From Eledone cirrhosa (taxonomy: Eukaryota), in NCBI GenBank assembly GCA_964016885.1, contig OZ024760.1, positions 28,086,001 to 28,150,000 of the forward strand: a DNA stretch of 64,000 nucleotides, in the 5' to 3' direction. The notes below the pieces were generated by a model, which had not been told where the DNA came from, did not search any database, and saw only the letters and a list, made by a program, of their open reading frames with translations. Of the stretch, positions 3,001 to 59,895 are shown piece after piece. A program made the position numbers and the translations under genes. Every line of letters starts with the position of its first letter. The first letter of the stretch is position 1.

Positions 3001-6000
3001 TACATATCCAGTGCTTTTATCGAGAATGACACAGCTAGAGACTTATAGAATACTTAGCTGTGTACAGGAACTGGTTTGAAAGAGCGGTTGCCGGTCCGGC
3101 AGAAATTAGAAATTGGAATAAATGCTCTGAAATAGCGATATATATGTGAATATAGACATAGAATATTCGAAAATATTCTGTATGTTTATAATAAACATTT
3201 TGAAGACCTAATCGCTATAGAATAGAATACGTCACGTATTACAATTAGATTCTCGATAAAAGCAAGGGAAGTAATCTACGCGTTTCATTCTTGTTAGAAA
3301 TCATTAGAAATCATCAGGACTACATATCCAGTGCTTTTATCGAGAATGACACAGCTAGAGACTTATAGAATACTTAGCTGTGTACAGGAACTGGTTTGAA
3401 AGAGCGGTTGCCGGTCCGGCAGAAATTAGAAATTGGAATAAATGCTCTGAAATAGCGATATATATGTGAATATAGACATAGAATATTCGAAAATATTCTG
3501 TATGTTTATAATAAACATTTTGAAGACCTAATCGCTATAGAATAGAATACGTCACGTATTACAATTAGATTCTCGATAAAAGCAAGGGAAGTAATCTACG
3601 CGTTTCATTCTTGTTAGAAATCATCAGGACTACATATCCAGTGCTTTTATCGAGAATGACACAGCTAGAGACTTATAGAATACTTAGCTGTGTACAGGAA
3701 CTGGTTTGAAAGAGCGGTTGCCGGTCCGGCAGAAATTAGAAATTGGAATAAATGCTCTGAAATAGCGATATATATGTGAATATAGACATAGAATATTCGA
3801 AAATATTCTGTATGTTTATAATAAACATTTTGAAGACCTAATCGCTATAGAATAGAATACGTCACGTATTACAATTAGATTCTCGATAAAAGCAAGGGAA
3901 GTAATCTACGCGTTTCATTCTTGTTAGAAATCATCAGGACTACATATCCAGTGCTTTTATCGAGAATGACACAGCTAGAGACTTATAGAATACTTAGCTG
4001 TGTACAGGAACTGGTTTGAAAGAGCGGTTGCCGGTCCGGCAGAAATTAGAAATTGGAATAAATGCTCTGAAATAGCGATATATATGTGAATATAGACATA
4101 GAATATTCGAAAATATTCTGTATGTTTATAATAAACATTTTGAAGACCTAATCGCTATAGAATAGAATACGTCACGTATTACAATTAGATTCTCGATAAA
4201 AGCAAGGGAAGTAATCTACGCGTTTCATTCTTGTTAGAAATCATCAGGACTACATATCCAGTGCTTTTATCGAGAATGACACAGCTAGAGACTTATAGAA
4301 TACTTAGCTGTGTACAGGAACTGGTTTGAAAGAGCGGTTGCCGGTCCGACAGAAATTAGAAATTGGAATAAATGCTCTGAAATAGCGATATATATGTGAA
4401 TATAGACATAGAATATTCGAAAATATTCTGTATGTTTATAATAAACATTTTGAAGACCTAATCGCTATAGAATAGAATACGTCACGTATTACAATTAGAT
4501 TCTCGATAAAAGCAAGGGAAGTAATCTACGCGTTTCATTCTTGTTAGAAATCATCAGGACTACATATCCAGTGCTTTTATCGAGAATGACACAGCTAGAG
4601 ACTTATAGAATACTTAGCTGTGTACAGGAACTGGTTTGAAAGAGCGGTTGCCGGTCCGGCAGAAATTAGAAATTGGAATAAATGCTCTGAAATAGCGATA
4701 TATATGTGAATATAGACATAGAATATTCGAAAATATTCTGTATGTTTATAATAAACATTTTGAAGACCTAATCGCTATAGAATAGAATACGTCACGTATT
4801 ACAATTAGATTCTCGATAAAAGCAAGGGAAGTAATCTACGCGTTTCATTCTTGTTAGAAATCATCAGGACTACATATCCAGTGCTTTTATCGAGAATGAC
4901 ACAGCTAGAGACTTATAGAATACTTAGCTGTGTACAGGAACTGGTTTGAAAGAGCGGTTGCCGGTCCGGCAGAAATTAGAAATTGGAATAAATGCTCTGA
5001 AATAGCGATATATATGTGAATATAGACATAGAATATTCGAAAATATTCTGTATGTTTATAATAAACATTTTGAAGACCTAATCGCTATAGAATAGAATAC
5101 GTCACGTATTACAATTAGATTCTCGATAAAAGCAAGGGAAGTAATCTACGCGTTTCATTCTTGTTAGAAATCATCAGGACTACATATCCAGTGCTTTTAT
5201 CGAGAATGACACAGCTAGAGACTTATAGAATACTTAGCTGTGTACAGGAACTGGTTTGAAAGAGCGGTTGCCGGTCCGGCAGAAATTAGAAATTGGAATA
5301 AATGCTCTGAAATAGCGATATATATGTGAATATAGACATAGAATATTCGAAAATATTCTGTATGTTTATAATAAACATTTTGAAGACCTAATCGCTATAG
5401 AATAGAATACGTCACGTATTACAATTAGATTCTCGATAAAAGCAAGGGAAGTAATCTACGCGTTTCATTCTTGTTAGAAATCATCAGGACTACATATCCA
5501 GTGCTTTTATCGAGAATGACACAGCTAGAGACTTATAGAATACTTAGCTGTGTACAGGAACTGGTTTGAAAGAGCGGTTGCCGGTCCGGCAGAAATTAGA
5601 AATTGGAATAAATGCTCTGAAATAGCGATATATATGTGAATATAGACATAGAATATTCGAAAATATTCTGTATGTTTATAATAAACATTTTGAAGACCTA
5701 ATCGCTATAGAATAGAATACGTCACGTATTACAATTAGATTCTCGATAAAAGCAAGGGAAGTAATCTACGCGTTTCATTCTTGTTAGAAATCATCAGGAC
5801 TACATATCCAGTGCTTTTATCGAGAATGACACAGCTAGAGACTTATAGAATACTTAGCTGTGTACAGGAACTGGTTTGAAAGAGCGGTTGCCGGTCCGGC
5901 AGAAATTAGAAATTGGAATAAATGCTCTGAAATAGCGATATATATGTGAATATAGACATAGAATATTCGAAAATATTCTGTATGTTTATAATAAACATTT

Positions 6001-7475
6001 TGAAGACCTAATCGCTATAGAATAGAATACGTCACGTATTACAATTAGATTCTCGATAAAAGCAAGGGAAGTAATCTACGCGTTTCATTCTTGTTAGAAA
6101 TCATCAGGACTACATATCCAGTGCTTTTATCGAGAATGACACAGCTAGAGACTTATAGAATACTTAGCTGTGTACAGGAACTGGTTTGAAAGAGCGGTTG
6201 CCGGTCCGGCAGAAATTAGAAATTGGAATAAATGCTCTGAAATAGCGATATATATGTGAATATAGACATAGAATATTCGAAAATATTCTGTATGTTTATA
6301 ATAAACATTTTGAAGACCTAATCGCTATAGAATAGAATACGTCACGTATTACAATTAGATTCTCGATAAAAGCAAGGGAAGTAATCTACGCGTTTCATTC
6401 TTGTTAGAAATCATCAGGACTACATATCCAGTGCTTTTATCGAGAATGACACAGCTAGAGACTTATAGAATACTTAGCTGTGTACAGGAACTGGTTTGAA
6501 AGAGCGGTTGCCGGTCCGGCAGAAATTAGAAATTGGAATAAATGCTCTGAAATAGCGATATATATGTGAATATAGACATAGAATATTCGAAAATATTCTG
6601 TATGTTTATAATAAACATTTTGAAGACCTAATCGCTATAGAATAGAATACGTCACGTATTACAATTAGATTCTCGATAAAAGCAAGGGAAGTAATCTACG
6701 CGTTTCATTCTTGTTAGAAATCATCAGGACTACATATCCAGTGCTTTTATCGAGAATGACACAGCTAGAGACTTATAGAATACTTAGCTGTGTACAGGAA
6801 CTGGTTTGAAAGAGCGGTTGCCGGTCCGGCAGAAATTAGAAATTGGAATAAATGCTCTGAAATAGCGATATATATGTGAATATAGACATAGAATATTCGA
6901 AAATATTCTGTATGTTTATAATAAACATTTTGAAGACCTAATCGCTCTAGAATAGAATACGTCACGTATTACAATTAGATTCTCGATAAAAGCAAGGGAA
7001 GTAATCTACGCGTTTCATTCTTGTTATAAATCATCAGGACTACATATCCAGTGCTTTTATCGAGAATGACACAGCTAGAGACTTATAGAATACTTAGCTG
7101 TGTACAGGAACTGGTTTGAAAGAGCGGTTGCCGGTCCGGCAGAAATTAGAAATTGGAATAAATGCTCTGAAATAGCGATATATATGTGAATATAGACATA
7201 GAATATTCGAAAATATTCTGTATGTTTATAATAAACATTTTGAAGACCTAATCGCTATAGAATAGAATACGTCACGTATTACAATTAGATTCTCGATAAA
7301 AGCAAGGGAAGTAATCTACGCGTTTCATTCTTGTTAGAAATCTTCAGGACTACATATCCAGTGCTTTTATCGAGAATGACACAGCTAGAGACTTATAGAA
7401 TACTTAGCTGTGTACAGGAACTGGTTTGAAAGAGCGGTTGCCGGTCCGGCAGAAATTAGAAATTGGAATAAATGC
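1..7475 (-). repeat. 310-bp tandem array (24 full units + partial; runs off the left edge), each unit carrying a minimal type I hammerhead ribozyme on the minus strand; retrozyme/PLE pLTR-like
   Basis: Units start at 1, 311, 621 ... 7141, 7451 and are nearly identical. Unit 11 has a 10-bp duplication near 3301. Minus strand reads GTAGTC-CTGATGA-TTTCT aaca AGAAT-GAAA-CGCG-TA-GATTAC. Confidence 0.95.
171..213 (-). ncRNA. Minimal type I hammerhead ribozyme (first of 24 copies, repeated every 310 bp)
   Basis: Stem I GUAGUC/GAUUAC, core CUGAUGA, stem II UUCU/AGAA with AACA loop, GAAA, palindromic stem III ACGCGU, GUA cleavage triplet (cut between + coordinates 177 and 176). A perfect 16-bp inverted repeat (149-164/222-237) extends stem I. 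Confidence 0.88.
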
Positions 7476-7680
7476 ACTGGATATGTAGTCCTGAAGATTT
7501 CTAACAAGAATGAAACGCGTAGATTACTTCCCTTGCTTTTATCGAGAATCTAATTGTAATACGTGACGTATTCTATTCTATAGCGATTAGGTCTTCAAAA
7601 TGTTTATTATAAACATACAGAATATTTTCGAATATTCTATGTCTATATTCACATATATATCGCTATTTCAGAGCATTTAT

Positions 7681-7686
<6 letters not shown>
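7474..7686 (+). repeat. Inverted partial copy of the 310-bp unit capping the array, with a + strand HHR
   Basis: Reverse complement of most of the last unit. It shares the private CTGAAGA variant of unit 24 (tcttcag at 7341-7347) and ends directly in (AT)n. Confidence 0.92.
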
Positions 7687-10852
<3,166 letters not shown>

Positions 10853-11790
10853 AAAAAAAATATATATATATATATATATATATATCTCCATATATATATA
10901 TGTATATATATAGGTATATATATAGGTATATATATGTATATATATGTATATATATATGTATATATATATCTATATATATGTATAGTTGAAAATTGCAAAC
11001 TTGACTGTCACCACACATTATGAACCTGAAGATTGCGAAAGCATGAAAGTACTTGTTCAATTAACACTTAGAATTTAATATTCTATCATACTATTTCATT
11101 ATAATACCTTTATAAATTTTAAAGGATTGTAAATAAAACGAGTAAATCAGACAAAATATACACAATCATACACACCCGTGTATATTTATCTATCTATATA
11201 TATATATATGTATATATATGTAGGTATGTATATATATATATATGTATATGTATATATGTATATATATATATATGTATATATATTTATATGTATATATATG
11301 TGTATGTATATATATATATGTATATATATGTGTGTACATAGGTATATATGTGTGTATACATATGTATATATATGTGTGTACATATGTATATATATGTATA
11401 TATATACATATATGTATATATATACATATATGTACATATGTATATATATGTGTATGTATATATATATATATATGTATATATATGTGTGTACATATGTATA
11501 TATATATGTATATGTATATATATGTGTGTATATATATATGTATATGTATATATATGTGTGTATATATATATGTATATATATGTGTATATATATATATGTA
11601 TATGTATATATATGTGTGTATATATATATGTATATATATGTGTTTATATATGTATATATATGTATGTGTAAATATGTATATATATTTTTATATATATATG
11701 TATGTATATATATATGTATATATATATGTATATATAGGTATATATATGTGTGTATATATATATGTATGTATATGTATATATATATATGTG

Positions 11791-16415: not shown

Positions 16416-16577
16416 TAACGAAAGAAGTGTGGTAAGGAACCAGATGGACCATAACGCACCAGAGTACTCAATACTTAGGGTAGTAGAGTGGGTAATAGGA
16501 AAATGTTTAACTCCGACGGCAGAGCTCAAGCCGTTTCGACGGCTTGAGCTCTGCCGTCGGGGTTAGACATTTTCCTA
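16416..16577 (-). mobile_element. Fold-back element (family E): palindrome holding the 3' half of an HHR, plus an ~80-nt unpaired tail
   Basis: Palindrome ~16495-16577 flanked by (TA)n. Same family at 18294-18502, 42722-42902, 57856-58043, 50460-50520; solo tail at 48646-48726. Confidence 0.8.
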
Positions 16578-16637
16578 TATATATATATATATATATAAGG
16601 GAGAGAGATAGATATACATGCAAAGAAAGTATATATA

Positions 16638-16689
16638 TAAGTATGTATGTATACGTACATACATATATGTATACAGACGTACAGTAGCA

Positions 16690-16761
<72 letters not shown>

Positions 16762-16848
16762 TACATACAGGTACACATACATATATGCACGCATCAGTTT
16801 AGCGGACGATTGCCGCTTTGTTCGTTTGTCAACAAACTGAACAGTATG

Positions 16849-16930
<82 letters not shown>

Positions 16931-17350
16931 TGCTACTGTACGTCTGTATACATATATGTATGTACGTATACATACATACTTACATTTAAGTAAGTGCCAT
17001 ACTAAGAGTGAGAAATGAAATTTCGTTTTCATTTTTTTCAACTTATCGTTTTCGGTATGCCTGACCGATTTAACTCACTCAATATGCAAATTAGGCTGCT
17101 CAGCCGTTAATTTTCATACGGAAAGTATATACTTTCGAACGTTCAACTATCTGGCAGATGGGTAAACGGTGCTGATGATAGCTAACAAGCTTGAAACTAG
17201 TACATCGTTCCTGTGTCAGTGTTGAACAAAAAGGTGACGTGGTTGCCTTAACACCGTATGGCATAAATTCAGGCTGTTCAGTTTGTTGACAAACGAACAA
17301 AGCGGCAATCGTCCGCTAAACTGATGCGTGCATATATGTATGTGTACCTG

Positions 17351-17420
<70 letters not shown>

Positions 17421-17532
17421 TGCTACTGTACGTCTGTATACATATATGTATGTACGTATACATACATACTTACATTTAAGTAAGTGCCATACTAAGAGTG
17501 AGAAATGAAATTTCGTTTTCATTTTTTTTCAA

Positions 17533-17535
<3 letters not shown>
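16638..17535 (+). mobile_element. Dispersed member of the 466-bp HHR family: inverted arm (16638-16845) + ~1.3 direct units; intact HHR at 17165-17209
   Basis: AACGGTG-CTGATGA-TAGCT aaca AGCTT-GAAA-CTAG-TA-CATCGTT. Ends at the same 3' point as the 51101-55235 array, then (TA)n. Confidence 0.88.
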
Positions 17536-17597
<62 letters not shown>

Positions 17598-18293: not shown

Positions 18294-18502
18294 ATAGGAA
18301 CGAGTAGGACCTCGACGGCTGAGCTCAAGCCGTTTCGACGGCTAATTCTGGACTGCTAATTCTAGTCCAGAATTAGCCGTCGAAACGGCTTGAGCTCAGC
18401 CGTCGGGGTCCTACTCGTTCCTATTACCCACTCTACTACCCTAAGTATTGAGTACTTTGGTGCGTTATGGTCCATCTCGTTCCTTACCACATTTCCTTCG
18501 TT
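18294..18502 (+). mobile_element. Fold-back element (family E)
   Basis: Long inverted repeat ~18294-18424. GAAA-CGGCT tgagctc AGCCG-TC at 18382-18404. Tail to 18502. Confidence 0.8.
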
Positions 18503-24029: not shown

Positions 24030-24443
24030 AAATCTAACTGTCCGTTAAATAACAACTGCTTAGCTAAAAATGTAGTGTACAATTGTAATGTTAAAACTAA
24101 TTTAAATTCATTTAACTATGTTGGTTCCACCTCTACAGAATTTAAATTTCGCTTCAATAATCATAAGAATTCTTTCACAGATCCAAACAAAAAATCTTCA
24201 ACTTCGCTATCTAGCCTAATATGGGACCTAAAACGAGATAATATTAAATATTCGATGAATTGGAATATTATTTCATAAGCTACTCCTTTTAATTCCTCTT
24301 CAGAAAATTGTGATCTTTGTATTGAAGAAATATTCTTTATATTAAAGTCCAAAAATTACCTTAATCTAAGGAACAATTTATTCAGTTGCTGCAGACATAG
24401 ATTGAACTCGACGTTTAAATATAAATATAAATTTAAAATGTAG
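24030..24443 (+). pseudogene. Penelope-like element GIY-YIG endonuclease C-terminal domain, 5'-truncated, one in-frame TAA (Naiad-like motif pattern)
   Basis: KSNCPLNNNCLAKNVVY...YVGSTSTEFKFRFNNHKNSF...STSLSSLIWDLK...WNIIS*ATPFN...CDLCIEEIFFIL...LNLRNNLFSCCRH: VVY/YVG, catalytic R, H, CxLC, LN and CRH motifs. Confidence 0.85.
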
Positions 24444-26042: not shown

Positions 26043-26107
26043 TATTTTGTCTGATGAAGGCATACCATAATTTAATGTGGTATCCCTGAAATATGTATAA
26101 TGAAATA
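26043..26107 (+). ncRNA. Minimal type I HHR in the putative pLTR downstream of the GIY-YIG remnant (family P)
   Basis: TATTTTGT-CTGATGA-AGGCATACCA..TGGTATCCCT-GAAA-TATGTA-TA-ATGAAATA. Same HHR at 48083-48147, 49613-49677, ~26648-26706 and in minus-strand arms. Confidence 0.75.
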
Positions 26108-34668: not shown

Positions 34669-37600
34669 GGCCCAGTGGTGAGGGCGGTGTACTTAGGATC
34701 CCGGTGGCCCAGTGGTGAGGGCGGTGTACTTAGGATCACAATGGTGACCTAGTGGTGAGGGTGGTGGACTTAGGATCACGGTGGCCCAGTGGTGAGGGTG
34801 GTGCACTTAGGATCCCGGTGGCCCAGTGGTGAGGGTTGTGTACTTAGGATCACAATGGTGACCTAGTGGTGAGGGTGGTGGACTTAGGATCACGGTGGCC
34901 CAGTGGTGAGGGTTGTGTACTTAGGATCGGATCACGGTGGCCCAGTGGTGAGGGTGGTGTACTTAGGATCACGGTGGCCCAGTGGTGAGGGTGGTGTACT
35001 TAGGATCACGGTGGCCCAGTGGTGAGGGTAGTGGACTTAGGATCGGATCACGGTGACCCAGTGGTGAGGGTGGTGTACTTAGGATCACGGTGGCCCAGTG
35101 GTGAGGGTGGTGTACTTAGGATCACGGTGGCCCAGTGGTGAGGGTAGTGGACTTAGGATCGGATCACGGTGGCCCAGTGGTGAGGGTGGTGTACTTAGGA
35201 TCACGGTGGCGCAGTGGTGAGGGTGGTGTACTTAGGATCACGGTGGCCCAGTGGTGAGGGTTGTGTACTTAGGATCGGATCACGGTGGCCCAGTGGTGAG
35301 GGTGGTGTACTTAGGATCACGGTGGCCCAGTGGTGAGGGTAGTGGACTTAGGATCGGATCACGGTGACCCAGTGGTGAGGGTGGTGTACTTAGGATCACG
35401 GTGGCCCAGTGGTGAGGGTAGTGGACTTAGGATCGGATCACGGTGGCCCAGTGGTGAGGGTGGTGTACTTAGGATCACGGTGGCCCAGTGGTGAGGGTTG
35501 TGTACTTAGGATCGGATCACGGTGGCCCAGTGGTGAGGGTGGTGTACTTAGGATCACGGTGGCGCAGTGGTGAGGGTGGTGTACTTAGGATCACGGTGGC
35601 CCAGTGGTGAGGGTTGTGTACTTAGGATCGGATCACGGTGGCCCAGTGGTGAGGGTGGTGTACTTAGGATCACGGTGGCCCAGTGGTGAGGGTGGTGTAC
35701 TTAGGATCACGGTGGCCCAGTGGTGAGGGTGGTGTACTTAGGATCACGGTGGCCCAGTGGTGAGGGTAGTGGACTTAGGATCGGATCACGGTGGCCCAGT
35801 GGTGAGGGTGGTGTACTTAGGATCACGGTGGCCCAGTGGTGAGGGTTGTGTACTTAGGATCGGATCACGGTGGCCCAGTGGTGAGGGTGGTGTACTTAGG
35901 ATCACGGTGGCCCAGTGGTGAGGGTGGTGTACTTAGGATCGGATCACGGTGGCCCAGTGGTGAGGGTGGTGTACTTAGGATCACGGTGGCCCAGTGGTGA
36001 GGGTGGTGTACTTAGGATCACGGTGGCCCAGTGGTGAGGGCGGTGTACTTAGGATCACGGTGACCCAGTGGTGAGGGTGGTGTACTTAGGATCACGGTGG
36101 CCCAGTGGTGAGGGTTGTGTACTTAGGATCACGGTGACCCAGTGGTGAGGGTGGTGTACTTAGGATCACGGTGGCCCAGTGGTGAGGGTAGTGGACTTAG
36201 GATCACGGTGACCCAGTGGTGAGGGTGGTGTACTTAGGATCACGGTGGCCCAGTGGTGAGGGCGGTGTACTTAGGATCACGGTGGCCCAGTGGTGAGGGC
36301 GGTGTACTTAGGATCACGGTGACCCAGTGGTGAGGGTGGTGTACTTAGGATCACGGTGGCCCAGTGGTGAGGGCGGTGTACTTAGGATCACGGTGGCCCA
36401 GTGGTGAGGGTGGTGTACTTAGGATCACGGTGGCCCAGTGGTGAGGGCGGTGTACTTAGGATCACGGTGGCCCAGTGGTGAGGGTGGTGTACTTAGGATC
36501 ACGGTGGCCCAGTGGTGAGGGTGGTGTACTTAGGATCACGGTGGCCCAGTGGTGAGGGTAGTGGACTTAGGATCGGATCACGGTGGCCCAGTGGTGAGGG
36601 TGGTGTACTTAGGATCACGGTGGCCCAGTGGTGAGGGTTGTGTACTTAGGATCGGATCACGGTGGCCCAGTGGTGAGGGTGGTGTACTTAGGATCACGGT
36701 GGCCCAGTGGTGAGGGTGGTGTTCTTAGGATCGGATCACGGTGGTCCAGTGGTGAGGGTGGTGTACTTAGGATCACGGTGGCCCAGTGGTGAGGGTGGTG
36801 TACTTAGGATCACGGTGGCCCAGTGGTGAGGGCGGTGTACTTAGGATCACGGTGACCCAGTGGTGAGGGTGGTGTACTTAGGATCACGGTGGCCCAGTGG
36901 TGAGGGTTGTGTACTTAGGATCACGGTGACCCAGTGGTGAGGGTGGTGTACTTAGGATCACGGTGGCCCAGTGGTGAGGGTAGTGGACTTAGGATCACGG
37001 TGACCCAGTGGTGAGGGTGGTGTACTTAGGATCACGGTGGCCCAGTGGTGAGGGCGGTGTACTTAGGATCACGGTGGCCCAGTGGTGAGGGCGGTGTACT
37101 TAGGATCACGGTGGCCCAGTGGTGAGGGTTGTGTACTTAGGATCACGGTGACCCAGTGGTGTGGGTGGTGTACTTAGGATCACGGTGGCCCAGTGGTGAG
37201 GGCGGTGTACTTAGGATCACGGTGGCCCAGTGGTGAGGGTGGTGTACTTAGGATCACGGTGGCCCAGTGGTGAGGGCGGTGTACTTAGGATCACGGTGGC
37301 CCAGTGGTGAGGGTGGTGTACTTAGGATCACGGTGGCCCAGTGGTGAGGGCGGTGTACTTAGGATCACGGTGGCCCAGTGGTGAGGGTGGTGTACTTAGG
37401 ATCACGGTGACCCAGTGGTGAGGGTGGTGTACTTAGGATCACGGTGACCCAGTGGTGAGGGTGGTGTACTTAGGATCACGGTGACCCAGTGGTGAGGGTG
37501 GTGTACTTAGGATCACGGTGGCCCAGTGGTGAGGGTGGTGTACTTAGGATCACGGTGACCCAGTGGTGAGGGTGGTGTACTTAGGATCACGGTGGCCCAG

Positions 37601-40600
37601 TGGTGAGGGCGGTGTACTTAGGATCACGGTGGCCCAGTGGTGAGGGTGGTGTACTTAGGATCACGGTGACCCAGTGGTGAGGGCGGTGTACTTAGGATCA
37701 CGGTGGCCCAGTGGTGAGGGTGGTGTACTTAGGATCACGGTGGCCCAGTGGTGAGGGCGGTGTACTTAGGATCACGGTGGCCCAGTGGTGAGGGTGGTGT
37801 ACTTAGGATCACGGTGACCCAGTGGTGAGGGTGGTGTACTTAGGATCACGGTGGCCCAGTGGTGAGGTTGGTGTACTTAGGATCACAATGGTGACCTAGT
37901 GGTGAGGGTGGTGTACTTAGGATCACGGTGGCCCAGTGGTGAGGGTAGTGTACTTAGGATCACGGTGGCCCAGTGGTGAGGGTGGTGTACTTAGGATCAC
38001 GGTGGCCCAGTGGTGAGGGTAGTGTACTTAGGATCACGGTGGCCCAGTGGTGAGGGTGGTGTACTTAGGATCACGGTGACCCAGTGGTGAGGGTGGTGTA
38101 CTTAGGATCACGGTGACCCAGTGGTGAGGGTGGTGTACTTAGGATCACGGTGGCCCAGTGGTGAGGGTGGTGTACTTAGGATCACAATGGTGACCTAGTG
38201 GTGAGGGTGGTGTACTTAGGATCACGGTGGCCCAGTGGTGAGGGTAGTGTACTTAGGATCACGGTGGCCCAGTGGTGAGGGTAGTGTACTTAGGATCACA
38301 ATGGTGACCTAGTGGTGAGGGTGGTGTACTTAGGATCACGGTGGCCCAGTGGTGAGGGTGGTGTACTTAGGATCACGGTGGCCCAGTGGTGAGGGTAGTG
38401 GACTTAGGATCACGGTGGCCCAGTGGTGAGGGTAGTGTACTTAGGATCACGGTGGCCCAGTGGTGAGGGTAGTGTACTTAGGATCACGGTGGCCCAGTGG
38501 TGAGGGTGGTGTACTTAGGATCACGGTGGCCCAGTGGTGAGGGTGGTGTACTTAGGATCACGGTGGCCCAGTGGTGAGGGTAGTGTACTTAGGATCACGG
38601 TGGCCCAGTGGTGAGGGTGGTGTACTTAGGATCACGGTGGCCCAGTGGTGAGGGTGGTGTACTTAGGATCACGGTGGCCCAGTGGTGAGGGTAGTGGACT
38701 TAGGATCACGGTGGCCCAGTGGTGAGGGTGGTGTACTTAGGATCACGGTGGCCCAGTGGTGAGGGTGGTGTACTTAGGATCACGGTGGCCCAGTGGTGAG
38801 GGTGGTGGGCTTAGGATCACGGTGGCCCAGTGGTGAGGGTGGTGTACTTAGGATAACGGTGGCCCAGTGGTGAGGGTGGTGTACTTAGGATCACGGTGGC
38901 CCAGTGGTGAGGGTGGTGTACTTAGGATCACGGTGGCCCAGTGGTGAGGGTAGTGGACTTAGGATCACAATGGTGACCTAGTGGTGAGGGTGGTGGGCTT
39001 AGGATCACGGTGGCCCAGTGGTGAGGTTAGTGTACTTAGGATCACGGTGGCCCAGTGGTGAGGGTAGTGGGCTTAGGATCACGGTGGCCCAGTGGTGAGG
39101 GTGGTGTACTTAGGATCACGGTGGCCCAGTGGTGAGGGCGGTGTACTTAGGATCACGGTGGCCCAGTGGTGAGGGCGGTGGACTTAGGATCGGATCACGG
39201 TGGCCCAGTGGTGAGGGTGGTGGACTTAGGATCACGGTGGCCCAGTGGTGAGGGTTGTGTACTTAGGATCACGGTGGCCCAGTGGTGAGGGCGGTGTACT
39301 TAGGATCACGGTGGCCCAGTGGTGAGGGTGGTGGACTTAGGATCACGGTGGCCCAGTGGTGAGGGTGGTGGACTTAGGATCACGGTGGCCCAGTGGTGAG
39401 GGTGGTGGACTTAGGATCACGGTGGCCCAGTGGTGAGGGTTGTGTACTTAGGATCACGGTGGCCCAGTGGTGAGGGTGGTGGACTTAGGATCGGATCACG
39501 GTGGCCCAGTGGTGAGGGTGGTGGACTTAGGATCACGGTGGCCCAGTGGTGAGGGTAGTGGACTTAGGATCACGGTGGCCCAGTGGTGAGGGTTGTGGAC
39601 TTAGGATCACGGTGGCCCAGTGGTGAGGGTTGTGTACTTAGGATCACGGTGGCCCAGTGGTGAGGGTAGTGGACTTAGGATCATGGTGGCCCAGTGGTGA
39701 GGGTAGTGGACTTAGGATCACGGTGGCCCAGTGGTGAGGGTTGTGTACTTAGGATCACGGTGGCCCAGTGGTGAGGGTTGTGTACTTAGGATCACGGTGG
39801 CCCAGTGGTGAGGGTAGTGGACTTAGGATCATGGTGGCCCAGTGGTGAGGGTAGTGGACTTAGGATCACGGTGGCCCAGTGGTGAGGGTTGTGTACTTAG
39901 GATCACGGTGGCCCAGTGGTGAGGGTTGTGTACTTAGGATCACGGTGGCCCAGTGGTGAGGGTAGTGGACTTAGGATCACGGTGGCCCAGTGGTGAGGGT
40001 TGTGGACTTAGGATCACGGTGGCCCAGTGGTGAGGGTTGTGTACTTAGGATCACGGTGGCCCAGTGGTGAGGGTTGTGTACTTAGGATCACGGTGGCCCA
40101 GTGGTGATGGTTGTGGACTTAGGATCACGGTGGCCCAGTGGTGAGTGTTGGGTAGTTAGGATCACAATGGTGGCCCAGTGGTGAGGGCGGTGTACTTAGG
40201 ATCACGGTGGCCCAGTGGTGAGGGTGGTGTACTTAGGATCACGGTGGCCCAATGGTGAGGGTTGTGTACTTAGGATCACGGTGGCCCAGTGGTGAGGGTT
40301 GTGTACTTAGGATCACGGTGGCCCAGTGGTGAGGGTGGTGTACTTAGGATCACGGTGGCCCAGTGGTGAGGGTTGTGTAGTTAGGATCACAATGGTGACC
40401 CAGTTGTGAGGGCGGTGTACTTAGGATCACGGTGGCCCAGTGGTGAGGGTTGTGTACTTAGGATCACGGTGGCCCAGTGGTGAGGGTAGTGGACTTAGGA
40501 TCACGGTGACCCAGTGGTGAGGGTTGTGTACTTAGGATCACGGTGGCCCAGTGGTGAGGGTAGTGGACTTAGGATCACAATGGTGACCTAGTGGTGAGGG

Positions 40601-40710
40601 TTGTGTACTTAGGATCACGGTGGTGAGGGTGGTGGACTTAGGATCATGGTGGCCCAGTGGTCAGGGTGGTGGACTTAGGATAATGGTGGTCTGGTGGTAA
40701 GGATGTTGGA
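34669..40710 (+). repeat. 37-bp GC-rich minisatellite (~160 units), unit GGTGGCCCAGTGGTGAGGGTGGTGTACTTAGGATCAC, resembling a tRNA/SINE 5' head
   Basis: Period 37 with variants (+GGATC, +AAT, T/C/A substitutions); contains A-box-like TGGCCCAGTGG. Confidence 0.95.
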
Positions 40711-42721: not shown

Positions 42722-42727
<6 letters not shown>

Positions 42728-42902
42728 ACAAGTAAGACCCCGACGGCTGAGCTCAATCCGTTTCGACGGCTAATTAGCCGTCGAAACGGCTTGAGCTCAG
42801 CCGTCGGGGTCTTACTTGTTCCTATTACCCACTCTACTACCCTAAGTATTGAGTACTTTGGTGCGTTATGGTCCACCTGGTTCTTACCACATTTCCTTCG
42901 TT
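42722..42902 (+). mobile_element. Fold-back element (family E)
   Basis: Palindrome centred on gacggctaattagccgtc, followed by the family E tail; flanked by (TA)n. Confidence 0.8.
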
Positions 42903-44574: not shown

Positions 44575-45980
44575 CTATTCTTGAGAGGGTCGCCAGGGCA
44601 GAGTCCTCAAACACTTCGTCCACCGGGTCCTGTCAGAAGCAACTCTGTCCAACTGATCTGGCTGGATCCGGAAGCGTGTCTGTAGTATCAGAGCTGTGAT
44701 CTCTCAATTAAGAGATTCTTTGCTAAGACATTCTGACCACATGTCTGTAGTATCAGAGCTGTGATATCTCAATTCAGAGATTCTTTCCGGAGACATTCTA
44801 ACCACATGTCTGTAGTATCAGAGCTGTGATCTCTCAATTCAGAGATTCTTTCCTGAGTCATTCTGACCACATGTCTGTAGTATCAGAGCTGTGATCTCTC
44901 AATTCAGAGATTCTTTCCTGAGACATTCTGACCACATGTCTGTAGTATCAGAGCTGTGATCTCTCAATTCAGAGATTCTTTCCGGAGACATTCTAACCAC
45001 ATGTCTGTAGTATCAGAGCTGTGATCTCTCAATTCAGAGATTCTTTCCTGAGTCATTCTGACCACATGTCTGTAGTATCAGAGCTGTGATCTCTCAATTA
45101 AGAGATTCTTTGCTAAGACATTCTGACCACATGTCTGTAGTATCAGAGCTGTGATATCTCAATTCAGAGATTCTTTCCGGAGACATTCTAACCACATGTC
45201 TGTAGTATCAGAGCTGTGATCTCTCAATTCAGAGATTCTTTCCTGAGTCATTCTGACCACATGTCTGTAGTATCAGAGATGTGATCTCTCAATTCAGAGA
45301 TTCTTTTCTGAGACATTCTGACCACATGTCTGTAGTATCAGAGCTGTGATCTCTCAATTCAGAGATTCTTTCCTGAGACATTCTAACCATATGTCTGTAG
45401 TATCAGAGCTGTGATCTCTCAATTCAGAGATTCTTTCCTGAGACATTCTGACCACATGTCTGTAGTATCAGAGCTGTGATCTCTCAATTAAGAGATTCTT
45501 TCTTGAGACATTCTGACCACATGTCTGTAGTATCAGAGCTGTGATCTCTCAATTCAGAGATTCTTTCCTGAGACATTCTGACCACATGTCTGTAGTATCA
45601 GAGCTGTGATCTCTCAATTCAGAGATTCTTTCCTGAGACATTCTGACTACATGTCTGTAGTATCAGAGCTGTGGTCTCTCAATTCAGAGATTCTTTCCTG
45701 AGACATTCTGACCACATGTCCATAGTATCGGAGCTGTGATCTCTCAATTCGGAGAAGTAGCAACTCTATCTGGAGTGACTCTATGTTATCCGAGAATACG
45801 CACTTCATCGAGTAACGTTACTCCAAAGACCCTTCGGAGGAATCTCATTTCGGCCGCTTGTATTCACGATAATATTCTTTCGATCATTACCCAAGATTCA
45901 TGACCATATGTAAGGGATGGCAGGAAAACCGAATTGAAGAGAGCGAGTTTGGCTTTTACACCTACCTCCCTTCTTCTGAT
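44575..45980 (-). pseudogene. RTE-clade LINE 3' remnant interrupted by an internal tandem amplification
   Basis: Minus strand: KAKLALFNSVFLPSLTYGHESWVM..IQAAEMRFLRRVFGVTLLD, then LLLRIERSQLRYYGHVVRM, and after the array LRIQPDQLDRVASDRTRWTKCLRTLPWRPSQE*. Confidence 0.8.
44676..45753. repeat. 65-bp minisatellite (~16.6 copies) derived from RTE coding sequence
   Basis: Unit starts at 44676, 44741, 44806, 44871 ... 45716. Confidence 0.95.
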
Positions 45981-50010: not shown

Positions 50011-50047
<37 letters not shown>

Positions 50048-50268
50048 ATGTGTATATATATGTATATATGTATATATGTATGTGTATATATATGTATATA
50101 TGTATATATGTATGTGTATATATATATGTATATATGTATGTGTATATATATATATATATATATGTATATGTATATATATGTATATATGTATATGTATATA
50201 TATGTATATATGTATATGTATATATGTATATGTATATATATGTATATATATATGTATATATGTATATA

Positions 50269-50328
<60 letters not shown>

Positions 50329-50379
50329 TATATACATATATACATATATATATACATATATATACATATACATATATAC

Positions 50380-50447
<68 letters not shown>

Positions 50448-51100
50448 ATATATATATATATAGGAACCAGTAAGACCCCGACAGCTGAGCTCAAGCCGTT
50501 TCGACGGCTAATTCTGGACTAAATGAAAATTTATCCTGGTATTTAAATAGCCGATCTTCTCAAGGGGTAATTCCATATATGGTCAAAGTGATTGTCAAAA
50601 ATCAGTAGTAATTCTGTGGTTGCAAATTAGTAGGGGAGATGGTGGCTAAACCTGCCAGTAGGAGAAAGAGGGGAGGGGGTGGAGTAGACCCAATCAAGCG
50701 TTGGTAGTGCCAGCTACAGCTGGGCATGAGGTCAAAGAAGATACAGGGGAGGGGGAGGAGGTCGGAACGGTAGGTAGAACAATGGGGGGTAGAAATAGGA
50801 AAGAAAAAATACTGAGAGTGAAGAAAAGCAAATAAGTGTAAAGAAAAAAGTAAAGTAAATTAAATTCTACGACCTAGGTGTCAGGCTATTGTTAGGCGAG
50901 AATAAAATAAAGAAAGAAAGAAAGAAGTAAATAAATAAATAAATAAATAAATAAGGAAATAAGTAAGAGAACTAGGTGGGACGGATAAGGCAAGGACCCT
51001 TTTAAGAGGTATAAGTACGTAAATGATACGGTGACGGGTCAACAAAAGGGGCCAAAATACTAAAGAGACTACCACGAAATAAACAATAAAGGTTTCCATC

Positions 51101-54100
51101 CCGTTAATTTTCATAAGGAAAGTATATACTTTCGAACGTTCAACTATCTGGCAGATGGGTAAACGGTGCTGATGATAGCTAACAAGCTTGAAACTAGTAC
51201 ATCGTTCCTGTGTCAGTGTTGAACAAAAAGGTGACGTGGTTGCCTTAACACCGTATGGCATAAATTCAGGCTGTTCAGTTTGTTTACAAACGAACAAAGC
51301 GACGTTAGCGCCGCTAAACTGATACGTGCATATATGTATGTGTACCTGTATGCATATGTATGTATATATGTATATATATATATATATGTGCATGCTACTG
51401 TACGTCTGTATACATATATGTATGTACGTATACATGCATACTTACATTTAAGTAAGTGCCATACTAAGAGTGAGAAATGAAATTTCGTTTTCATTTTGTT
51501 TCAATTTATCGTTTTCGGTATGCCTGACCGATTTAACTCACTCAATATGCAAATTAGGCTGCTCAGCCGTTAATTTTCATAAGGAAAGTATATACTTTCG
51601 AACGTTCAACTATCTGGCAGATGGGTAAACGGTGCTGATGATAGCTAACAAGCTTGAAACTAGTACATCGTTCCTGTGTCAGTGTTGAACAAAAAGGTGA
51701 CGTGGTTGCCTTAACACCGTATGGCATAAATTCAGGCTGTTCAGTTTGTTTACAAACGAACAAAGCGACGTTAGCGCCGCTAAACTGATACGTGCATATA
51801 TGTATGTGTACCTGTATGCATATGTATGTATATATGTATATATATATATATATATGCATGCTACTGTACGTCTGTATACATATATGTATGTACGTATACA
51901 TGCATACTTACATTTAAGTAAGTGCCATACTAAGAGTGAGAAATGAAATTTCGTTTTCATTTTGTTTCAATTTATCGTTTTCGGTATGCCTGACCGATTT
52001 AACTCACTCAATATGCAAATTAGGCTGCTCAGCCGTTAATTTTCATAAGGAAAGTATATACTTTCGAACGTTCAACTATCTGGCAGATGGGTAAACGGTG
52101 CTGATGATAGCTAACAAGCTTGAAACTAGTACATCGTTCCTGTGTCAGTGTTGAACAAAAAGGTGACGTGGTTGCCTTAACACCGTATGGCATAAATTCA
52201 GGCTGTTCAGTTTGTTTACAAACGAACAAAGCGACGTTAGCGCCGCTAAACTGATACGTGCATATATGTATGTGTACCTGTATGCATATGTATGTATATA
52301 TGTATATATATATATATATGTGCATGCTACTGTACGTCTGTATACATATATGTATGTACGTATACATGCATACTTACATTTAAGTAAGTGCCATACTAAG
52401 AGTGAGAAATGAAATTTCGTTTTCATTTTGTTTCAATTTATCGTTTTCGGTATGCCTGACCGATTTAACTCACTCAATATGCAAATTAGGCTGCTCAGCC
52501 GTTAATTTTCATAAGGAAAGTATATACTTTCGAACGTTCAACTATCTGGCAGATGGGTAAACGGTGCTGATGATAGCTAACAAGCTTGAAACTAGTACAT
52601 CGTTCCTGTGTCAGTGTTGAACAAAAAGGTGACGTGGTTGCCTTAACACCGTATGGCATAAATTCAGGCTGTTCAGTTTGTTTACAAACGAACAAAGCGA
52701 CGTTAGCGCCGCTAAACTGATACGTGCATATATGTATGTGTACCTGTATGCATATGTATGTATATATGTATATATATATATATATGTGCATGCTACTGTA
52801 CGTCTGTATACATATATGTATGTACGTATACATGCATACTTACATTTAAGTAAGTGCCATACTAAGAGTGAGAAATGAAATTTCGTTTTCATTTTGTTTC
52901 AATTTATCGTTTTCGGTATGCCTGACCGATTTAACTCACTCAATATGCAAATTAGGCTGCTCAGCCGTTAATTTTCATAAGGAAAGTATATACTTTCGAA
53001 CGTTCAACTATCTAGCAGATGGGTAAACGGTGCTGATGATAGCTAACAAGCTTGAAACTAGTACATCGTTCCTGTGTCAGTGTTGAACAAAAAGGTGACG
53101 TGGTTGCCTTAACACCGTATGGCATAAATTCAGGCTGTTCAGTTTGTTTACAAACGAACAAAGCGACGTTAGCGCCGCTAAACTGATACGTGCATATATG
53201 TATGTGTACCTGTATGCATATGTATGTATATATGTATATATATATATATATGTGCATGCTACTGTACGTCTGTATACATATATGTATGTACGTATACATG
53301 CATACTTACATTTAAGTAAGTGCCATACTAAGAGTGAGAAATGAAATTTCGTTTTCATTTTGTTTCAATTTATCGTTTTCGGTATGCCTGACCGATTTAA
53401 CTCACTCAATATGCAAATTAGGCTGCTCAGCCGTTAATTTTCATAAGGAAAGTATATACTTTCGAACGTTCAACTATCTGGCAGATGGGTAAACGGTGCT
53501 GATGATAGCTAACAAGCTTGAAACTAGTACATCGTTCCTGTGTCAGTGTTGAACAAAAAGGTGACGTGGTTGCCTTAACACCGTATGGCATAAATTCAGG
53601 CTGTTCAGTTTGTTTACAAACGAACAAAGCGACGTTAGCGCCGCTAAACTGATACGTGCATATATGTATGTGTACCTGTATGCATATGTATGTATATATG
53701 TATATATATATATATATGTGCATGCTACTGTACGTCTGTATACATATATGTATGTACGTATACATGCATACTTACATTTAAGTAAGTGCCATACTAAGAG
53801 TGAGAAATGAAATTTCGTTTTCATTTTGTTTCAATTTATCGTTTTCGGTATGCCTGACCGATTTAACTCACTCAATATGCAAATTAGGCTGCTCAGCCGT
53901 TAATTTTCATAAGGAAAGTATATACTTTCGAACGTTCAACTATCTGGCAGATGGGTAAACGGTGCTGATGATAGCTAACAAGCTTGAAACTAGTACATCG
54001 TTCCTGTGTCAGTGTTGAACAAAAAGGTGACGTGGTTGCCTTAACACCGTATGGCATAAATTCAGGCTGTTCAGTTTGTTTACAAACGAACAAAGCGACG

Positions 54101-55235
54101 TTAGCGCCGCTAAACTGATACGTGCATATATGTATGTGTACCTGTATGCATATGTATGTATATATGTATATATATATATATATGTGCATGCTACTGTACG
54201 TCTGTATACATATATGTATGTACGTATACATGCATACTTACATTTAAGTAAGTGCCATACTAAGAGTGAGAAATGAAATTTCGTTTTCATTTTGTTTCAA
54301 TTTATCGTTTTCGGTATGCCTGACCGATTTAACTCACTCAATATGCAAATTAGGCTGCTCAGCCGTTAATTTTCATAAGGAAAGTATATACTTTCGAACG
54401 TTCAACTATCTGGCAGATGGGTAAACGGTGCTGATGATAGCTAACAAGCTTGAAACTAGTACATCGTTCCTGTGTCAGTGTTGAACAAAAAGGTGACGTG
54501 GTTGCCTTAACACCGTATGGCATAAATTCAGGCTGTTCAGTTTGTTTACAAACGAACAAAGCGACGTTAGCGCCGCTAAACTGATACGTGCATATATGTA
54601 TGTGTACCTGTATGCATATGTATGTATATATGTATATATATATATATATGTGCATGCTACTGTACGTCTGTATACATATATGTATGTACGTATACATGCA
54701 TACTTACATTTAAGTAAGTGCCATACTAAGAGTGAGAAATGAAATTTCGTTTTCATTTTGTTTCAATTTATCGTTTTCGGTATGCCTGACCGATTTAACT
54801 CACTCAATATGCAAATTAGGCTGCTCAGCCGTTAATTTTCATAAGGAAAGTATATACTTTCGAACGTTCAACTATCTGGCAGATGGGTAAACGGTGCTGA
54901 TGATAGCTAACAAGCTTGAAACTAGTACATCGTTCCTGTGTCAGTGTTGAACAAAAAGGTGACGTGGTTGCCTTAACACCGTATGGCATAAATTCAGGCT
55001 GTTCAGTTTGTTTACAAACGAACAAAGCGACGTTAGCGCCGCTAAACTGATACGTGCATATATGTATGTGTACCTGTATGCATATGTATGTATATATGTA
55101 TATATATATATATATGTGCATGCTACTGTACGTCTGTATACATATATGTATGTACGTATACATGCATACTTACATTTAAGTAAGTGCCATACTAAGAGTG
55201 AGAAATGAAATTTCGTTTTCATTTTGTTTCAATTT
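51101..55235 (+). repeat. 466-bp tandem array (~8.9 units), each with an intact minimal type I HHR; retrozyme-like
   Basis: HHRs start at 51162, 51628, 52094, 52560, 53026, 53492, 53958, 54424, 54890. Units are almost identical; the array ends in (TA)n. Confidence 0.95.
51162..51206 (+). ncRNA. Minimal type I hammerhead ribozyme (first of 9)
   Basis: Stem I AACGGUG/CAUCGUU, CUGAUGA, stem II AGCU/AGCU with AACA loop, GAAA, palindromic stem III ACUAGU, GUA triplet (cut after 51199). Confidence 0.9.
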
Positions 55236-55247
55236 ATATATATATAC

Positions 55248-55339
<92 letters not shown>

Positions 55340-55361
55340 GTATATACACATAAATATATAA

Positions 55362-55410
<49 letters not shown>

Positions 55411-55536
55411 CATATATATATATATGTATATACACATATATATATAAAGATATATAAAGATATATATATATATGTATATATATATAAAGATAGATATATA
55501 TATTTATATATATATATATATATATATACATATATG

Positions 55537-55569
<33 letters not shown>

Positions 55570-55815
55570 GTATATACACATATATATATAAAGATATATA
55601 TATATATGTATATATATATAAAGATAGATATATATATTTATATATATATATATATACACATATATATATATATGTATGTATATACACATATATATAAAGA
55701 TATATATATATATGTATATATATATAAAGATAGATATATATATTTATATATATATATATATACACATATATATATATATATGTATGTATATACACATATA
55801 TATAAAAATATATAC

Positions 55816-55860
<45 letters not shown>

Positions 55861-56256
55861 TATATGTATATACACATATATATATATATGTACACATATA
55901 TATATATATATATTTATATATACATATATATATATATAAAGATATATATATATATGTATATATGTATATATATATATGTATGTATATACACACATATATA
56001 TATATAAAGATATATATATGTATATATGTATATATATATGTATGTATATACACACATATATATATATAAAGATATATAAAGATATATATATGTATATATA
56101 CACATATATATGTATATACACACATATATATATATAAAGATATATATATGTATATATGTATATATACACATATATATGTATATACACATATATATATATA
56201 TATAAAGATATATATATTTATATAGCTTGGTTGTATATATATATATATATATATAT

Positions 56257-56544
56257 AATGTAGGAGGTGAGTTTTATTGTAGTACAATAAAGCAATGCAG
56301 ATATCGGATAAGAAGCACTCTACAGTTTGTAGGTCTGGAGTATAAATAATATATAAGATCACAAGATGGTTAAAAGAGTTCCATGTATTTTATTATGCGC
56401 ATTTCAAAAACAAATATCATCATGCTATAACATTTGCGTTTTCCCTATTTTATCTGACGAAAACGCAAATGTTATTGCATGATGATATTTGTTTTTGAAA
56501 TGCGCATTATAAAATACATGGAACTCTTTTAACCATCTGTTGAT

Positions 56545-57855: not shown

Positions 57856-58043
57856 TAACGAAGGAAATGTGGTAGGGAACCAGGTGGACCATAACGCACC
57901 AAAGTACTCAATACTTGAGGTAGTAGAGTGGGTAATAGGAACCAGTAAGACCCCGACAGCTCAAGCCGTTTCGACGGCTAATTCTGGACTAATTAGCCGT
58001 CGAAACGGCTTGAGCTCAGCTGTCGGGGTCTTACTGGTTCCTA
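57856..58043 (-). mobile_element. Fold-back element (family E)
   Basis: Tail 57856-57935, then palindrome around gacggctaattctggactaattagccgtc. Confidence 0.8.
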
Positions 58044-59702: not shown

Positions 59703-59895
59703 TAAGTTATTCAGGGTTCAATCAAGGGTAACCACAGTAAGTAAGGTACTCAATACATAGCCGAGTATAGATCTTTTAATATAGAAAAGCTTCTACAGGA
59801 CTAAAACTGTTTCATTCGTGAGAAATCATCAGGAAGCTCCTGATGATTTCTCATGAATGAAACAGTTCTATTCATGTAGAAGCTTTTCTATATTA
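59703..59895 (-). mobile_element. Fold-back element with back-to-back HHR cores similar to the 310-bp satellite HHR
   Basis: ..GAAATCATCAGGA-agc-TCCTGATGATTTC tcat GAAT-GAAACAGTT; tail to the left. Confidence 0.7.

Follow-up and report, generated by a model that had tools for sequence, protein, structure and literature searches.

How does a tandem array with a hammerhead ribozyme motif in every unit come to lie within a run of TA repeats in the genome of Eledone cirrhosa, and which enzyme may have put it there? The array in question occupies positions 51101–55237 on the plus strand of a 64,000-nt stretch of contig OZ024760.1 (hereafter the window; all coordinates are positions within it), and the insertion to which it belongs is flanked by its (TA)n target on the left (50011–50462) and on the right (55238–56257). 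By every feature testable here, the family of this array would be classed as a non-long-terminal-repeat (non-LTR) retrozyme, a known kind of element. We read the array as one recent retrozyme insertion, and a Penelope-like element (PLE), most likely one of the Hydra clade, as the likely source of the enzyme that copied it into (TA)n; we give this reading a probability of about 0.7. It is the inverted PLE arm upstream of the array and the tailed two-arm structure of the insertion that carry the mechanism; both were missed by a preliminary description of the locus.

The two-armed insertion and its ends

The retrozyme arm consists of eight full 466-bp units and a 409-bp last unit (8.9 copies). 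All eight spacings between units are exactly 466 bp and the nine units differ in just two columns, each time in one unit only, giving 2 substitutions in ~4.1 kb. With this exact period and these near-identical units, the nine-unit tandem array of the preliminary description stands, its count being that of the assembly.

Insertions of the family lie within (TA)n and usually have two arms joined 5′ to 5′ (head to head). One arm ends at unit position 345–350 (site 1; 51445–51450, plus strand, in the first unit of the window's array, which reads through it) and the other near 409 (site 2), which is the distal of the family's two 3′ ends and the point where the ninth copy in the window stops. The ~59-nt tail that separates the two sites (55179–55237, plus strand) holds a hairpin and is followed directly by the (TA)n target. 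Complementary ends were found in 86 of 87 readable two-arm insertions and same-site pairs in none, a count that includes two loci (L187 and L188) that share breakpoints and are probably one event. These two lie 750 kb apart with identical breakpoints, a probable segmental duplication. The 36 pairs listed for loci anchored on the ribozyme comprise 22 complementary pairs, one hairpin artefact and 13 pairs with an unreadable end; nine of ten two-armed loci of the young subfamily were complementary, and one ends at 386. At 80 loci anchored on one end, all 55 readable partners were complementary in an alignment-based tally, the rates being rough as most of these loci had no exact partner end listed and nearly all lie on the two largest chromosomes. 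Two apparent same-site pairs were discarded: one of type 1,1 (L002m) was the self-match of a hairpin, and one of type 2,2 (L214) was really 2+1 beside a diverged neighbour.

Exact junctions of an end with TA number 878 for site 2 and 270 for site 1, site 1 having more than one spelling, and at 33 of 46 head-to-head junctions the two arms share a few bases. Target-site duplications are not readable inside (TA)n. The same two-site rule is followed by a 310-bp hammerhead family (26-nt tail) and by two PLE families of this genome, PLE-1 (83 nt) and PLE-2 (about 45–50 nt); at their end sites the four families were seen to share no sequence motif apart from a TA/TAT overlap with the target. PLEs are known to be marked by inverted arms and by a tail on one end (PMC8557442), and for an anole PLE the tail has been traced in vitro to two internal reverse-transcription start sites, with the protein cutting and extending both strands (PMC11167929). 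The retrozyme family displays an inverted 5′-truncated arm, a tail on a single end and a (TA)n target, and we consider it very probable that it was inserted by PLE machinery. Fold-back copying of the first complementary DNA (cDNA) was rejected as a general source of the inverted arm, because at L017m, for instance, each arm holds sequence absent from the other.

The family was counted by exact sequence patterns in the 3.0 Gb of genome searched. The 31-nt ribozyme core has 10,718 exact copies on both strands and its reversed control none, so that its recurrence is not due to chance. A 30-mer diagnostic for the window's subfamily has 4,471 exact copies, and units equal to the window's unit occur at several loci of another chromosome (C1), which supports the earlier proposal of a recently active, retrozyme-like family. 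Among 186 copies in 69 groups, units of one arm differed by 0.27%, the two arms of an insertion by 0.60% and separate loci by a median of 5.4%. Arms of the family hold from 1 to 15 or more units. A second, older insertion of the family, ~3% from the array unit, lies at 16632–17537 with a minus arm running to site 1 and a plus arm to site 2. The features shared with retrozymes are thus a type I hammerhead in nine of nine units, a dispersed multicopy family ranging from monomers to multimers, and a monomer RNA that is predicted to be highly self-paired. The unit has a GC content of 36–37%, no terminal repeat structure was seen in the retrozyme insertions examined, and similarity to PLE-1 or PLE-2 protein was absent from the units. 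Six sequencing runs from three studies contain the unit, none of them listed as RNA (the kind of run is not on record, and one may be the source of the assembly).

Independence from the 310-bp family, which had also been proposed, holds for the units as such, whose alignments are limited to the ribozyme (37 nt, 78%, E 7e-5) and to TA-rich stretches; however, the likeness of the two ribozymes and the common two-site insertion rule speak against full independence. The 310-bp array itself (1–7685, and a further locus, L065) is a two-armed (TA)n insertion with a long minus arm running to its site 1 and a short plus arm running to its own site 2 with the 26-nt tail, and equal pairing was seen at L152–L155.

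An inverted PLE arm and the candidate helper

The partner arm of the array belongs to PLE-1. It is the 5′-truncated 3′ end (pseudo-LTR) of that element, covers 641 bases of the minus strand (50463–51103), ends at PLE-1 site 1 and differs from an intact PLE-1 copy by one substitution and six gap columns. The two arms meet head to head at 51101–51103, with 3 bp of microhomology and no TA between them. This junction occurs only once genome-wide, and the PLE arm and the array are equally young.

PLE-1 is an autonomous PLE with a period of 3,542 bp and an open frame of 784 codons; 104 of the copies scored are at 99–100% identity over 400 residues, many of them with uninterrupted 784-codon frames. 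Its open reading frame (ORF) has reverse transcriptase and GIY-YIG-type motifs. Read by eye, RW[K/R], DKT, CxCx5C, CxxC and CxH are present and CCHH is absent, a set that appears to fit the Hydra clade as described in section 11 of PMC8557442. Pfam and PDB searches with PLE-1 returned no match, the only named relative among its top sequence matches comes from a bivalve, and the PLE-1 and PLE-2 proteins share a weak C-terminal match (E 2e-6). The pseudo-LTR contains a predicted hammerhead of its own (50475–50568, minus strand) with a U3-A8 core, a variant known for PLE ribozymes (PMC4209133). All three of its helices are in the minimum-energy fold and a GUC cut is predicted after 50480, 17 nt before site 1; other copies carry a G.U to G-C variant in helix III. 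The strands of helices II and III can instead pair into a short hairpin, and this is where many of the very short PLE-1 arms end. PLE-1 is very dense in the 64-kb window, with four more short end fragments (16510–16544, 18297–18421, 42725–42822 and 57938–58041), three of which are inverted pairs.

Joins of this kind are not confined to the window. Mosaics of retrozyme and Hydra-type PLE sequence were counted within 149 sampled loci and found at seven, namely the window, L022m, L083, L230, L246, L103 and L067. Wherever both ends are readable (four mosaics), the PLE-type arm runs to site 1 and the retrozyme arm to site 2; the opposite build, with a PLE arm running to site 2 and a retrozyme arm to site 1, was not seen in these loci. 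L022m and L083 repeat the build of the window, PLE-1 site 1 with retrozyme site 2, and at L230 the retrozyme's partner is a site 1 arm from a family whose tail resembles that of PLE-1. A Hydra-type ORF is joined head to head at L246, and the partner sequence at L103 is 80% similar to sequence lying downstream of a Hydra-type ORF. At L067 a piece of Hydra-type ORF stands in tandem directly 5′ of the retrozyme arm and the opposite arm is 85% like another Hydra downstream region. One more locus (L260) was left out for the TA between its arms. Mosaics with the Neptune/Nematis-type PLE-2 numbered zero among the 149 loci, and none of these loci has a retrozyme copy directly downstream of a complete PLE ORF. 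On balance we favour a Hydra-type PLE as the helper.

The sequence of events that we propose is as follows. The array would be transcribed, and paired ribozymes would cut the RNA into 466-nt monomers or short multimers, which would then be circularised. A PLE protein, probably a dimer, would cut both target strands, and reverse transcription would begin inside the RNA at two positions, some 251 and 310 nt downstream from where the ribozyme cuts. Each cDNA would span one or many units and microhomology would join the two 5′ ends. Both arms would usually copy one RNA variant; in the window the template of one arm would have been RNA of the PLE itself. A more specific version, which we put forward tentatively and which may well fail, is that a viroid-like circular RNA parasitises an active Hydra-clade PLE, the halves of the dimer being fixed to different start sites and able to load different RNAs, with the retrozyme copied by a rolling circle.

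PLE-2, represented by L177 (2124–4451, plus strand) and by 10981–11155 in the window, is a second young PLE family with 775 codons and Neptune/Nematis-type motifs, and in both arms many of its short copies share a fixed start ~200 nt from the end. Other hammerhead-like motif families are present in the window at 26051, 26456, 26649, 43072, 43188, 48091, 49543, 49621, 56454, 56820 and 59832–59840, mostly as inverted pairs, and at least two of them resemble sequence downstream of Hydra-type ORFs at L217, L190 and L240. A degenerate C-terminal piece of another Hydra-type ORF, 39% identical to PLE-1, lies at 24030–24413 (plus strand). The window further contains a 37-bp GC-rich tandem array of 160 copies (34669–40689), whose unit gives the impression of the head of a short interspersed element derived from transfer RNA (tRNA), and a 65-bp tandem array of 16.6 copies with 94% matches (44677–45755). 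ARAGORN found no tRNA genes in the window.

The ribozyme, the template and competing explanations

Each unit carries a type I hammerhead predicted from sequence (51162–51206, plus strand, in the first unit), and the motif as written in the preliminary description recurs in all nine units, with the core at 51169 + 466n and the predicted cut after 51199 + 466n. It combines a 7-bp helix I, a canonical core, a 4-bp helix II closed by U.U with an AACA loop, and a helix III made of a 6-nt palindrome with a 2-nt loop. With a loop of 2 nt, helix III can form only between two ribozymes (predicted duplex −6.8 kcal/mol). Closure of helix II by U.U and a dimer-dependent helix III have both been described for animal type I hammerheads (PMC7229834; PMC4209133). 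Rfam gave no match at the gathering score, Hammerhead_HH9 scoring only 18.5 bits (E 0.1) against a cut-off of 52; sub-threshold matches to microRNA families were caused by the TA hairpin and were set aside. Each unit contains a TA-rich palindromic stretch (51329–51387, plus strand, in the first), which differs in length among loci and is itself a target of nested insertions. Compared with shuffles, the predicted fold of the monomer RNA has a z of −7.8 for the whole unit and −4.4 without the TA-rich part. As for the further hairpins noted earlier, the aaatgaaa hairpin is present in the minimum-energy fold whereas the cagttt/aaactg multibranch is absent from it.

The preliminary description had gone on to propose structure-level selection. 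At the eight most diverged loci, shared changes affect none of 25 core positions and 39 of 233 positions elsewhere (Fisher p 0.013), and one stem I pair is altered on both sides, from G.U to U.G. The same core test on all copies below 91% identity gave 0/25 against 18/299, which is not significant. Selection acting on the retrozyme ribozyme may thus be granted modest support. Largely by analogy with the retrozymes of PMC7229834, we think that an active dimeric ribozyme and a circular intermediate are reasonably probable.

Variants private to one locus are fixed in all units at L012m, L144 and L150 and in both arms at L148, and in the older arrays L075 and L076 divergence within arms equals that between arms. 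From these fixed private variants and the symmetry of the arms, the arrays appear to have been made at insertion, and we hold it to be likely that multimers in general formed in this way. At least one cut site is passed in 117 of 161 arms and no 5′ arm end falls exactly at the cut (unit positions 99–101), which fits a circular or an uncleaved template. Ends just downstream of the cut are in mild excess (20 of 85 5′ ends, p 0.03, post hoc). At L138 a few adjacent units share variants. Another locus (L145, 967–9757) is two-armed with ~19 units and has a variant pattern of three units that recurs in both arms; one of the variants changes C-G to U.G in helix II.

Several observations weigh against the reading that we prefer. 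Among the 80 end-anchored loci 25 have no readable partner, and some are single-armed. In the predicted circular fold, the three helix I pairs beside the core have a probability of only 0.18–0.28, only one of nine predicted frog retrozymes cleaved in vitro (bioRxiv 2026.07.22.740005), and insertion by the anole PLE did not require ribozyme cleavage (PMC11167929). The recurring dimer (L006m) and trimer (L145) variant patterns show that the template was in some cases a multimer and not a single monomer circle, or else that units were duplicated at a later time. As to the helper, the tail rule does not pick one, since PLE-2 has it too, and the PLE-2 pseudo-LTR hammerhead, whose helix III is palindromic and whose helix II has U.U at its base, has the same U.U build as that of the retrozyme. 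The difference between seven mosaics and none is not significant (about p 0.2) because pieces of Hydra-type ORF are commoner than Neptune-type ones in the sampled loci (34 against 9). Retrozyme site 1 arms also stand head to head with 3′ ends bearing a (GAT)n tail, which we take to be RTE-like, at L012m and L078; since such junctions exist, a later insertion with a deletion can mimic a mosaic. Four further junction partners (L081, L082, L217 and L242) are not assigned to a family. A blastn search found no match of the retrozyme unit to PLE-1 or PLE-2, so that derivation of the retrozyme from their pseudo-LTRs is not supported.

Part of this evidence could be explained if the helper were PLE-2, or several PLE families, and the PLE-1 arm of the window had arrived later and independently, deleting the original second arm. 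PLE-2 is young, has 775-codon open frames, inserts at TA, follows the tail rule and has a ribozyme of similar build, and the RTE-like junctions show that foreign arms can arise by other routes. Yet TA-free head-to-head junctions with PLE-2 are absent from the loci examined, PLE-1 arms match their retrozyme partners in end type and in age (young in the window, older in L083), and at L067 a Hydra-type ORF is in tandem with the retrozyme arm while the other arm resembles a Hydra pseudo-LTR; we regard this explanation as unlikely. A somewhat stronger competitor, although still doubtful, leaves the PLE origin unchanged and takes the ribozyme to be weak or incidental, the template being an uncleaved multimeric transcript and not a circle. 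The need for a dimer to form helix III, the U.U closure of helix II, the multi-unit patterns of L145 and L006m and the lack of a pile-up of 5′ ends at the cut site would all suit it, as would the low in vitro activity reported for such motifs (PMC4209133; PMC7229834; bioRxiv 2026.07.22.740005). Against it stand the core spared in diverged subfamilies, the two-sided stem I change, the mild enrichment of 5′ ends just downstream of the cut and the commonness of one- and two-unit insertions alongside arrays of up to 15 units with fixed private variants; moreover, similar axolotl ribozymes cleave well as dimers and circles are produced (PMC7229834).

The tandem form, the near-identical units and the shared variants of adjacent units at L138 would also be expected of a satellite derived from a PLE pseudo-LTR and enlarged in place by unequal crossing-over, a possibility discussed in bioRxiv 2026.07.22.740005. 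We consider this very improbable: the family comprises thousands of dispersed insertions with defined retro-type ends, and at none of the 149 loci does a copy follow a complete PLE ORF as its natural downstream repeat. The two inverted arms of an insertion resemble each other as closely as do the units inside one arm, in the older arrays L075 and L076 too, and by this arm symmetry the satellite origin is largely refuted. Almost identical units, together with the lack of a sequencing record across the whole stretch, could in turn point to an assembly artefact in the array or at the PLE junction. This has hardly any likelihood in view of the two private substitutions and the unique junction; the ends also fall at sites used throughout the family, and more than 80 other loci are built in the same way. 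Insertion by a PLE enzyme, most likely of the Hydra clade, is the reading that we carry forward.

Relation to known retrozymes and PLEs

In the accessible text of the papers concerned, a PLE helper of animal retrozymes is only proposed, as a candidate (PMC7229834; PMC7761336) or from co-occurrence and homology (bioRxiv 2026.07.22.740005). We found no published description of inverted tailed arms or of PLE mosaics for retrozymes in a search that covered the accessible main text of open papers. Here a retrozyme family bears the insertion fingerprint of PLEs at base resolution and is fused to a young, intact PLE family. The strict pairing of a short end with a tailed end also limits the ways in which PLE enzymes generally could resolve an insertion. 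Were the viroid-like parasite reading true, the enzyme moving animal retrozymes would have been identified directly from a genome for the first time.

The closest known elements are the non-LTR retrozymes of coral, mussel and axolotl (Cervera and de la Pena 2020, PMC7229834), which likewise have tandem, low-GC, non-coding units with one type I hammerhead each, a highly self-paired predicted RNA, thousands of copies and coexisting PLEs; HHR_Amex2 of the axolotl shares the basal U.U of helix II and performs better as a dimer. Their units measure 170–400 nt against 466 bp here. Expression and cleavage have been shown for them and are proposed for the window's family. The accessible part of that paper names PLEs as no more than candidate helpers and describes no inverted arms, tail or microsatellite target. 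A link between retrozymes and PLEs is drawn in the work of Li, Clavereau and Pollet (bioRxiv 10.64898/2026.07.22.740005), where retrozymes are PLE derivatives and the size range of 51–972 bp includes 466 bp. The evidence there, as far as its accessible text goes, is co-occurrence and pseudo-LTR homology, mostly in vertebrates, in contrast to the insertion anatomy and mosaics used here. Our results also differ in that homology to the two active PLEs tested was not detectable and that arrays born multimeric are favoured over local satellite growth.

PLE-1 resembles the Hydra-clade PLEs (Craig et al. 2021, PMC8557442) in its motif set, (TA)n target, tandem and inverted copies, tail and hammerhead. 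It differs from them in its period (3.54 kb, most being <3 kb), its tail (83 nt, 30–40 being typical) and its U3-A8 core, and the accessible sections of that paper do not mention a non-autonomous retrozyme partner. Anolis Poseidon PAc (Frangieh et al. 2024, PMC11167929) is autonomous, belongs to another clade and has no in-trans use of a non-coding RNA reported in the accessible text. It is alike in its two internal start sites, the cutting and extension of both strands, an AT-rich target and a predicted dimer, and since protein, RNA and target are to hand, along with two predicted start positions, for the in vitro assay that exists for it (PMC11167929), the question of the helper is now testable.

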